A DNA stretch of 63,928 bases, the filler included, from Collodictyon triciliatum (lineage: Eukaryota), in assembly GCA_043381765.1 (NCBI GenBank). It is 7 parts of 7 records of this genome, joined end to end, with 100 filler letters (N's around TTAATTAATTAA, not from the genome) between each part and the next. Parts side by side here need not be neighbours in the genome. Positions count along the whole stretch, not along the records: positions 41,819 to 48,997 come from JBHJMP010000102.1; 6 more parts are not named here. One strand, written 5' to 3'. A model generated the notes under the pieces. It did no database searches and had not been told where the DNA came from. It saw nothing but the letters and a program-made list of their open reading frames with translations. Of this stretch, positions 41,819 through 43,171 are shown in pieces; the first letter of the stretch is position 1; every line of letters starts with the position of its first letter. The translations under genes and the position numbers were made by a program.

Positions 41819-41942
41819 GTGCTACCCTCTCCACGGTAGTGTCTTCTCCTACTCGCGTTTGCTCTCTCCCATGCGCTCCCATCCCGCCCCTTTGTATGGC
41901 ATAACCTCGCTACACTTTGAATCGAATAAAGGAAAAAAAAAA
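41819..41942 (+). mobile_element. Family A retroposon 3' end, longest copy; its poly(A) abuts the Fanzor coding remnant
   Basis: Near-identical to 41620-41718 but extends further 5' (GTGCTACCCTCTCCACGGT). Confidence 0.75.
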
Positions 41943-43171
41943 CTACCATTATACCGTGTCATATTACTCTAGATACGGCATGTTTGATAGATCTATTAGT
42001 ATTGTCTGGAAACAGTATTACTGAAGAATATATCAGGATGCAAAGAGACCCTATGGGATAAGTCATTTGAAATGAAGAAGAGGGCTTTTCATCAAACGGA
42101 CTACAATTTTAAATACACAATACAAACAGACGGCTTGGCGGTGTCATTATTATTTGAAAAGAAAGGGATTTCAAATTCCAAATTCCAATTTAGTCAAAAC
42201 CAAGAATATGTCTATATAGATGAACTTTCCAAAGGCCAGTTATCTTTATTAGCGACAAAAAATATTTGGAGTGGATGCAGGAAAGTTTAATTTGGTTTAC
42301 ATGGTGGATGAGACGGGTAAGAAATCACGTTACGCGGCACACCAAAGAAGACATGATAGCAAATCTCTTAAAAATCACAAAATACTCTTGAGCGAGAAAA
42401 AAGAAAAGTACAATGCTTCAGGGATATGCATGGCAACAGGTTTCCAAAGTGCTGTTTCTTTTGTTGCCATGACTTTTGAAGAGAATCAGCAGTTTGAGGC
42501 ATCAAGAGTATCTTTAATCGATTTAGAGACAAAATTGAGTAAACATAATTCATGCACGGTCGATTATGAAAAATTTCGAAAATTCGTATCTATATATGTG
42601 GAAATTGAAACTCCATAATATATAGTTTCAATTTCCACAATATAATCAAGATTCCAAATAGAATTATCCAAATTTTATGAACAAGTAACTTTTCGAAAGA
42701 TGAGATGGAGACAGATTGTTAATACAAAAAGAAGTGAACAGTTGTTTATGGACCGAATTGAAAAAGACATTTTGGCAAGGATGTTGTACTGGTGTATGGG
42801 AACTGGAGCAGAAAATGTCAGAAGAAACATTTGATGCCAACAATTGGAGGAGGATTACAAAAAATATTATCCTATCGTTCTGAAAAAGTTATTGCAGATG
42901 AATTTAGAACATCCAAGATGTGTTGCAACTGCGAAAAAGAACTGGAATATATGAAACCGAAAGGAAATTCAAAAAAGGTGTATAGATGTCTCATATGTAA
43001 AGAATGCAATCGCTCAGAAAGCAAAGTGTATTCTTGATAAGGGACTTTAACAGCGCTGATAATATACTCAACAAAGTTGTTTTAATCCTTCCAAATATGC
43101 ATACACCTTCCTCTAAAAAAAAGGCTGTCAAATCTTTCCTGGCAGCCTTCACCACTACACAACCTCTGTGA
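41942..43171 (+). pseudogene. Fanzor1 (TnpB-derived RuvC nuclease) relic, 5'-truncated, with at least 4 frameshifts and internal insertions
   Basis: Joining frames gives IIPCHITLDT, LWDKSF, IQTDGLAVS, RuvC-I GVDAGKFNL, LSKFYEQVTFRKMRWR...KRSEQ, YGNWS, MPTIG, RuvC-II DEFRTSKMCCNC, CLICKEC and RuvC-III RDFNSADNI. It has no GT-AG intron structure, unlike the neighbouring host genes. Confidence 0.88.

Follow-up and report, generated by a model that had tools for sequence, protein, structure and literature searches.

The DNA analyzed here, a stretch of 63,928 nucleotides from the assembly of Collodictyon triciliatum (the 63.9-kb window; all positions are counted along its full length), carries on its plus strand a broken copy of a gene for a Fanzor1 nuclease. 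Fanzors are eukaryotic RNA-guided nucleases, which are of interest as compact genome editors; they are borne by transposons and are found in eukaryotes and giant viruses. The copy corresponds to residues 249-643 of P0077, an intact relative of 648 amino acids (tblastn), and is the only Fanzor1 copy that self-comparison and tblastn of related proteins detected in the window. Its extent and parts are the following.

41941-43171, plus strand: the whole Fanzor1 pseudogene, from tblastn of the relatives P0077 and P0011 and from a hidden Markov model of 12 relatives
41941-42010, plus strand: frame 2 segment, a WED-like part with IPCHITLDT, up to the first frame break, which lies within the A-run 42010-42012
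41951-41977, plus strand: motif IPCHITLDT, frame 2
42012-42266, plus strand: frame 3 segment with TDG, ending at the second frame break at 42267 (a lone T; a Val codon in relatives)
42126-42134, plus strand: motif TDG, frame 3
42268-42591, plus strand: frame 1 segment with RuvC-I (GVDAG) and a subfamily insertion of ~31 residues (~42409-42501)
42268-42282, plus strand: motif GVDAG, frame 1
42594-42643, plus strand: 50-nt palindromic insertion with a perfect 16-bp stem, seen as a self inverted match
42646-42765, plus strand: frame 1 segment with FRKMRW, followed by the third frame break
42691-42708, plus strand: motif FRKMRW, frame 1
42771-43022, plus strand: frame 3 segment with YGNW, DEFRTSK and the zinc finger (CxxC at 42921-42932 and CxxC at 42987-42998)
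42798-42806, plus strand: motif GNW, frame 3
42897-42932, plus strand: motif DEFRTSK-M-CCNC, frame 3
42987-43007, plus strand: motif CLICKEC, frame 3
43025-43171, plus strand: frame 2 segment behind the fourth frame break, with RuvC-III (RDFNSADNI), the C-terminal tail and the TGA stop at 43169-43171
43040-43066, plus strand: motif RDFNSADNI, frame 2

An earlier note on this DNA had proposed that three short open reading frames (ORFs), 42072-42290, 42271-42618 and 42792-43037, belong with the intervening segments to one colinear protein that carries all of these motifs. Reading the ORFs of the window confirmed all three, and upon translation the eight motifs were observed in colinear order on the plus strand between 41951 and 43066, running through frames 2-3-1-1-3-2.

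The identity of this protein was examined by searches with single segments and with intact relatives. When the segment 42762-43037 was compared with the PDB, it matched the Fanzor1 of Parasitella parasitica (PpFz1) at E 1.1e-8, the next match being at 0.081; the segments 42253-42618 and 42000-42290, searched alone against the same database, gave nothing significant (best E 0.68 and 0.97, respectively). Among six segments searched against Pfam there was one match, to Cas12f1-like_TNB (PF07282; segment 42771-43022), which at E 0.0015 and 19.1 bits stayed below the cut-off of 26.3 bits. A word-indexed protein search with the segment 42762-43037 found no longer proteins. When 1.84 billion representative proteins were scanned with the segment 42253-42618, 60 matches at E <=1e-3 were obtained, 12 of them having at least 550 amino acids. 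One relative, P0011 (634 amino acids), gave in tblastn colinear pieces in frames 2, 3, 1 and 3 over its residues 254-573 with a joint E of 1.4e-57, and neither P0011 nor the other relatives had a tblastn match elsewhere in the window. P0011 itself matched, in the PDB, the Fanzor1 of Spizellomyces punctatus (SpuFz1) at E 9.2e-37 over residues 14-607, PpFz1 at 7.2e-34 and GtFz1 at 7e-16.

From 12 full-length relatives we built a profile, A1, and searched with it the forward frames, in which every stop was replaced by X. It matched all three frames, at E 1.7e-45, 6.8e-34 and 5.3e-9, over profile positions 259-607, and six sub-matches followed one another in genomic order (259-291, 285-374, 368-422, 420-491, 479-578 and 573-607). 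Against the PDB, the same profile reached SpuFz1 (7.6e-84), PpFz1 (8.1e-82) and GtFz1 (1.7e-56), and the next match, LaTranC, was at 0.0047; the 16 PDB sequences that the profile reached at E <=1 include no chain with the name TnpB or Fanzor2. The earlier note had asked for an alignment to Fanzor and TnpB profiles, and had named a failure to match them as the outcome that would speak against a Fanzor1; in the event, the stretch matched a profile whose strong matches in the PDB are Fanzor1 structures only. Judged from these alignments, the stretch is a genuine Fanzor1 copy, with a homology far beyond chance.

The residues expected of the active site are nearly all in place. When the copy is read through, each break being written as X, it retains 23 of the 24 positions checked that are invariant or nearly so in the family. 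The Asp of RuvC-I (42274-42276), the alternative Glu (42900-42902) and the Asp of RuvC-III (43043-43045) all survive, the Gly of YGNW (42798-42800) stands at the canonical RuvC-II Glu position, and these D, G, E and D residues align with the invariant D372, G496, E530 and D581 of P0011. The four zinc-finger cysteines are kept in alignment with C537, C540, C564 and C567 of P0011, and so is the Arg-Asp-x-Asn of RuvC-III. Through the alignment of P0011 with SpuFz1, the three acidic residues correspond to those of the motifs D-P-N, D-E-Y-K-T-S and R-D in SpuFz1, for which the available text of PMC10432273 gives D383, N385, E541 and D606 as metal-binding residues. The single change among the 24 positions is Pro to Ala, which turns DPG into DAG; this Pro is invariant in all 12 relatives of the profile and is also present in P0077, P0007 and P0001. 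The survival of the D-E-D triad in a broken frame, with DAG for DPG, is thus as the earlier note had described it. The same note had taken the relocated Glu as a hallmark of Fanzor1. Its presence is borne out, its exclusivity is not: in the part of PMC10530073 that deals with it, the canonical RuvC-II Glu is replaced by Pro or Gly in Fanzors and in a subset of TnpB proteins, with an alternative Glu ~45 residues away, and an excerpt of PMC11423790 places this alternative Glu on the loop preceding the TNB domain. On the published text available, therefore, the relocated Glu marks all Fanzors and a TnpB subset and is not specific to Fanzor1.

We next describe the lesions and how other copies differ at each of them. 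For comparison, contigs of the public runs X1, X2, X3 and X6 were aligned to the window at >=80% likeness. None of these runs is the source assembly, since each contains at most 15% of the sampled words of the stretch. The numbers of related contigs placed were 14 (X1), 40 (X2), 28 (X3) and 307 (X6), with a likeness ranging from under 90% to 99% and more; near-identical short contigs came from two freshwater metagenome runs of two studies and from one subsurface run. The spread of likeness, 80-99%, indicates a multi-copy family, so the Fanzor1 family that the earlier note had supposed for this genome does exist in the public data.

Instead of a single ORF, we observed four frame breaks and two TAA stops. 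The first break is a short A-run at 42010-42012. At 42009 two more A residues are found in a minority of copies only (3.3 of 7.2 depth in X3 and 15.8 of 103 in X6, from one contig and two contigs, respectively), and a contig that is 93% alike, X3 record 17, has the same short A-run; therefore, this break is common to part of the family. The second break, the lone T at 42267 in place of the Val codon, is crossed without a gap by X1 record 3 (1 difference in 151 nt) and X2 record 9 (1 in 189 nt), and no insertion or deletion at this site was among those listed for other copies. The two in-frame TAA stops, 42616-42618 and 42643-42645, belong to the palindrome, the second of them straddling the 3' edge of the insert. 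As DNA the palindrome folds at -17.3 kcal/mol (z -6.84). Three contigs of X2 and one of X3 skip it, joining 42593 to 42644 with two letters between, and the X6 depth over 42594-42643 is 10.5 against 145-173 alongside. X1 record 5, with 0 differences, enters the palindrome past the first TAA, so that the first arm and the first stop are reproduced.

The palindrome at 42594-42643 is absent from nearly all other copies; it could be a foldback footprint, a template switch or a tiny hairpin element.

At the third break, two runs are each longer by a single base, an A-run whose last position is 42765 and a T-run that starts at 42770. At 42765 the other copies have one base fewer in 9 of 9 depth (X1), 11.8 of 22.6 (X2), 3.6 of 3.6 (X3) and 158 of 170 (X6); at 42770 the corresponding values are 9 of 9, 22.6 of 22.6, 3.6 of 3.6 and 164 of 170. 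At the fourth break, behind 43021, the copy has four bases fewer than most others: four more bases are present in 13.2 of 18.2 depth in X2, 8.7 of 10.7 in X3 and 109 of 183 in X6, but in 0 of 63 in X1, whose contigs diverge at 43025. Three of the lesions are missing from the majority of the related copies.

Introns as the source of the frame changes were considered and rejected, because the offsets of 1-4 bases lie within a colinear peptide. An alternative genetic code was likewise rejected, as the frameshifts persist under any code.

The N-terminal side is lost as well, a truncation that the earlier note had missed while describing the broken frame correctly. About 248 N-terminal residues, the REC lobe and ~38% of the protein, are absent. 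Homology begins at 41941, that is, from residue 249 of P0077 and residue 254 of P0011, so the REC lobe is gone and the WED part incomplete, and tblastn with 60 related proteins found no upstream Fanzor part, which P0077 and P0011 do possess, anywhere in the window. By these alignments, only the C-terminal 61% of the protein remains. Seven contigs (two of X3 and five of X6) extend upstream of 41941, and our translation of them resembles KLFQPLPIR of P0077. Because other copies continue upstream of 41941, the 5' truncation is specific to the relic copy.

Could pieces of such a gene still be in use, by programmed frameshifting, by splicing from one frame to the next, or after domestication of the C-terminal part as a nuclease fragment? 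The survival of the three catalytic residues and of the zinc-finger cysteines would fit such a use. However, offsets of 1-4 bases inside a colinear conserved peptide leave no room for introns, two TAA stops stand in the hairpin, the copy has neither the REC lobe nor the invariant Pro of DPG, and its terminal branch in the family tree (see below) is long. We regard continued use as barely conceivable. The breaks, the stops, the missing REC lobe and the Pro to Ala change together mean that the relic cannot make a nuclease.

The truncated 5' edge adjoins a repeat and, beyond it, an assembly gap:

41839-41942, plus strand: retroposon-like repeat tail, ending in AATAAAGG and poly(A), which adjoins the truncated 5' edge of the pseudogene
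41719-41818, no strand: gap of 44 N, TTAATTAATTAA and 44 N, lying between two copies of the repeat

A 99% copy of the repeat lies at 41620-41718, across the N gap. Its last 25-45 nt, with AATAAA and poly(A), recur at 58277-58322, 44566-44593, 44663-44693, 51047-51073 and 7463-7492, and its depth in X6 is 2593 compared with 236-380 in the next three bins. We infer that the repeat at 41839-41942 is a retroposon tail; it looks like a 5'-truncating non-LTR (long terminal repeat) or short interspersed element family. In all, this tail, which ends in ACTTTGAATCGAATAAAGG and poly(A), occurs seven times in the window, in most cases as a very short 3' end. The TTAATTAATTAA inside the gap is a six-frame stop linker, and nine similar gaps occur, such as 8118-8217, 14499-14598 and 20147-20246. 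As the gap is flanked by two repeat copies that are 99% alike, the join may be repeat-mediated; a simple overlap does not explain the gap, because immediately upstream of 41839 the copies cease to agree.

These features bear on the possibility that the gene is in fact intact or nearly so, and that its breaks and truncation are errors of a draft assembly, namely homopolymer miscalls and a misjoin at a repeat by a gap. The 21 N runs of the window and the location of three changed sites in A or T runs are what one would expect from this, and joins mediated by a repeat typically leave a gap with a copy of it on either side. Against it, X1 record 3 and X2 record 9 keep the lesion at 42267 and X1 record 5 enters the palindrome, none of them coming from the source assembly. 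That near-identical contigs reproduce the 42267 break and the start of the palindrome argues against a pure assembly error for those two lesions. Moreover, a 50-nt hairpin insert and a loss of four bases are not homopolymer errors, and X3 record 17, at 93% likeness, shares the short A-run at 42010-42012. An intact gene spoiled by the assembly alone is, in our judgement, highly unlikely, and we continue with a copy that is itself decayed.

The closest relative of the relic is P0077, an uncharacterized and uninterrupted protein with the usual DPG, encoded on a 2610-bp metagenome contig and 82% identical to a fragment, P0007. Five tblastn segments (49-70% identical, residues 249-643) cover the relic, and over 324 profile columns the two are 66% identical. 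In a quick tree of 52 rows they are sisters with a support of 99 in the Shimodaira-Hasegawa-like approximate likelihood ratio test (SH-aLRT), the relic having a terminal branch of 0.45 compared with 0.17 for P0077. The longer branch of the relic is as expected of a decaying copy. The relic and P0077 together sit on a stem of their own with a length of 0.45. They also share with P0001 and P0004 the insertion of ~31 residues after RuvC-I (42409-42501; about 410-445 in P0077), which the viral clade described below does not have; its occurrence in P0001 and P0004 makes it a trait of the subfamily, not an intron. Therefore, the relic is one member of a multi-copy family whose nearest intact relative is P0077, and the earlier suggestion that intact copies may exist elsewhere holds for the same subfamily.

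A strict-pattern scan of viral contigs for P0077 confirmed 0 of 36 pattern matches, and a scan of metagenome contigs for P0007 confirmed 0 of 85. A wider set of relatives was found, mostly on giant-virus contigs. On viral contigs 37 loci were detected, many of them with giant-virus bin names, and on metagenome contigs 123 of 537 pattern matches were confirmed, the best 80 being 41-53% identical to the segment 42762-43037. The profile matched in 115 of 117 loci, with 82 of the 115 spanning at least 500 profile positions. In the quick tree, the relic and P0077 join a group with the viral-contig loci L001-L005 at an SH-aLRT of only 89. The atlas clusters nearest to P0077 consist of viruses to 92-100%, most commonly Nucleocytoviricota, and carry the label PF26935 (DUF8286), which we take as a lead and not as a test. 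The N-terminal part of the family bears this PF26935 (DUF8286) label, whose model is absent from the Pfam copy searched; hence databases list these Fanzor1 proteins largely under hypothetical proteins or transposases. The occurrence of Fz1 in giant viruses has already been reported in the available text of PMC10432273. The clade is not the unsampled lineage that the earlier note had thought possible, for public contigs from giant viruses and metagenomes carry dozens of its intact members.

Loci L001 and L004 are flanked by genes for a ribonucleotide reductase small chain, a glycosyltransferase and an mRNA capping enzyme of 1018 amino acids, and have just upstream, on the opposite strand, a DDE_3 transposase with a helix-turn-helix part (E 1.3e-13 and 1.5e-15). 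A tblastn match to a DDE_3 transposase was present in 38 of the 117 loci, in 33 of them on the opposite strand, and of the 64 loci in which the Fanzor N-terminus is complete and over 1.5 kb of upstream sequence is present, 20 show it within 1.5 kb. In L001, L003 and L004, inverted ends of 32-33 nt, 97-100% complementary, bound 3282-3321 bp. These elements are of the DDE_3 (Tc1/mariner/IS630-like) type:

L001:3637-6952, L003:3668-6949 and L004:3631-6951, transposase and Fanzor1 on opposite strands: 3.3-kb elements

We read the flanks of the three elements as compatible with a TA duplication at a TTTAAA-like site. In the window, tblastn of the viral DDE_3 transposases found no transposase remnant (best E 0.36), and the 5' side of the copy is lost.

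Given these relatives, the relic might be an endogenous viral fragment that arose when giant-virus DNA integrated, instead of a copy left by transposition in a cellular genome. The nearest large set of intact relatives does reside on viral contigs (the 37 loci), ribonucleotide reductase and an mRNA capping enzyme lie beside L001 and L004, and the atlas clusters are of viruses. The surroundings of the relic, however, show no other virus-like gene, the ORFs of at least 150 amino acids being translations of simple repeats or cellular exons. The cellular exons comprise UCH exons at 31393-32409 and 37559-38290, both on the minus strand, and a protein-kinase exon at 50138-50800; with a G+C content of 36.6% and abundant simple repeats, the window is cellular eukaryotic DNA. 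In addition, the 307 related contigs of one organism-labelled run (X6), 80-99% alike, fit an amplification within a genome, the relic and P0077 stand on a stem of their own, and the strict-pattern scan with P0077 yielded no close relative among viral contigs, although this is weak evidence. A viral insertion thus appears improbable, though somewhat less so than an intact gene spoiled by the assembly, and a copy left by transposition remains our reading.

Among the cellular exons, two are paralogous UCH-start exons (ubiquitin hydrolase) that lie ~6 kb apart, which suggests a tandem gene duplication.

Downstream of the stop, the copies continue to resemble one another for a short distance:

43172-43262, plus strand: 3' non-coding tail common to family copies, from contig depth past the stop, which is zero from 43263

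The likeness among the tails ends somewhere within 43216-43262. As RNA, the region 43030-43270 folds at -59.3 kcal/mol (z -2.94), and 0 of 200 shuffles did as well. The tail is a plausible candidate for the remnant of an omegaRNA scaffold together with the right end of the element. The viral clade has a strongly conserved 3' element ending in GGTGTAAA, which lies 30-95 nt after the stop codon in the majority of the 63 distinct tails that were listed. The sequences diverge beyond this element, and in L001, L003 and L004 the right inverted end lies inside it. RNAalifold on 10 viral 3' tails gave 9 pairs, of which 6 have compensatory changes, and the element looks like the scaffold of a guide RNA. 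In the viral 3' tails of L010:6736-6896, L021:1673-1833, L026 and L017, short G+C-rich palindromic inserts break the conserved element; they may represent miniature elements that inserted into the guide-RNA region. When the viral element (alignments A3 and A4) was searched with nhmmer against the window, there was no match in 43000-43300, the best one elsewhere having an E of 0.43. Rfam at its gathering threshold gave 0 matches in the window, and ARAGORN 0 tRNA or transfer-messenger RNA genes.

Taken together, the locus is very probably a non-functional, 5'-truncated and frame-broken Fanzor1 gene copy in a eukaryotic nuclear genome. Several points weigh against this. Only two lesions, at 42267 and in the palindrome, are seen in near-identical independent contigs; three changed sites are within homopolymer runs (42010-42012, 42761-42765 and 42770-42773); and the draft assembly is gapped by the N runs counted above. 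The missing 5' part could in principle lie past the gap at 41719-41818. Copy number, intact copies and element ends were judged from other public contigs. The type of transposon would follow only from relatives that are 45-48% identical, and the guide RNA of the relic is one that we infer.

The relatives and the literature suggest how the ancestral element may have worked. It would have encoded a protein of ~650 amino acids with REC, WED, RuvC and TNB (zinc finger) parts. This protein would bind a guide, the omegaRNA, for which the 3' end of the gene and the right transposon end serve as template, and would cut double-stranded DNA that matches the guide beside a short target-adjacent motif (TAM); the relic copy itself cannot encode such an enzyme. 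Cutting would be carried out by a RuvC site made of the Asp of DPG, the alternative Glu before the zinc finger and the Asp of RDxN, and would presumably help the transposon to persist or spread.

By itself, the relic is an ordinary decayed copy of an already well-sampled family and will not surprise a specialist; thousands of Fanzors and partial copies are described in the available text of PMC10530073 and PMC10432273. The value of the dead copy is that of a pointer to a multi-copy Fanzor1 subfamily in a probably freshwater eukaryote, with at least one intact relative in public data and with its nearest kin riding on Tc1/mariner-like transposons in giant viruses. If the family is active in its host, it would offer an added orthologue with its own guide RNA and a data point on the traffic between viruses and hosts. 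As a tentative idea, which we hold to be possible yet doubtful, a giant-virus-type Fanzor1 lineage (DUF8286, Tc1/mariner/IS630-like) might have colonized the nuclear genome of a freshwater eukaryote and reached a high copy number, with P0077-like members still intact and active and having a guide RNA different from that of the viral clade. If true, this would be a concrete exchange of an RNA-guided nuclease transposon between a giant virus and a host, as well as a source of a new Fanzor1 orthologue.

Among known systems, there is a likeness to bacterial and archaeal TnpB (of IS200/IS605 and IS607) and to Fanzor2, which, according to the text available from PMC10432273 and PMC10530073, have in common the RuvC and zinc-finger core and the mechanism of a transposon-carried RNA-guided nuclease. 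They differ in that the Pfam TNB match of the relic is under the cut-off and that profile A1 reaches no chain so named. PpFz1 (PDB 9cf0) is the sole solved structure found by any single segment of the relic alone. It carries an FRI insertion that binds cyclophilin (PMC11423790, in the part available), and nothing indicates a kinship between this insertion and the small one of the relic.

The best solved match to A1 is SpuFz1 (Spizellomyces punctatus; PDB 8gkh and others), over profile positions 6-613. Both have the Asp in DP(G/N), with A for P in the relic, G-D-W or its counterpart at the old RuvC-II place, the Glu directly before the TS-CxxC zinc finger and the Asp of R-D-x-N. The relation is distant, however, and the relic is truncated and frame-broken; the subfamily of the relic also has the ~31 extra residues after RuvC-I. 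S. punctatus, too, has partial copies next to complete ones: 42 loci with full-length (19) or partial genes are reported in the available text of PMC10432273, which also states that the inverted repeats of Spu-1 enclose no transposase that could be found.

The giant-virus-borne Fanzor1 loci L001-L030 have the same conserved residues as the relic and are 41-48% identical to it over 334 aligned columns. Their GGTGTAAA element has no sequence match in the tail of the relic, and they are mostly intact, whereas the relic is not. Unlike Spu-1, three of these viral relatives of the clade to which the relic belongs have a DDE_3 transposase within their inverted ends.

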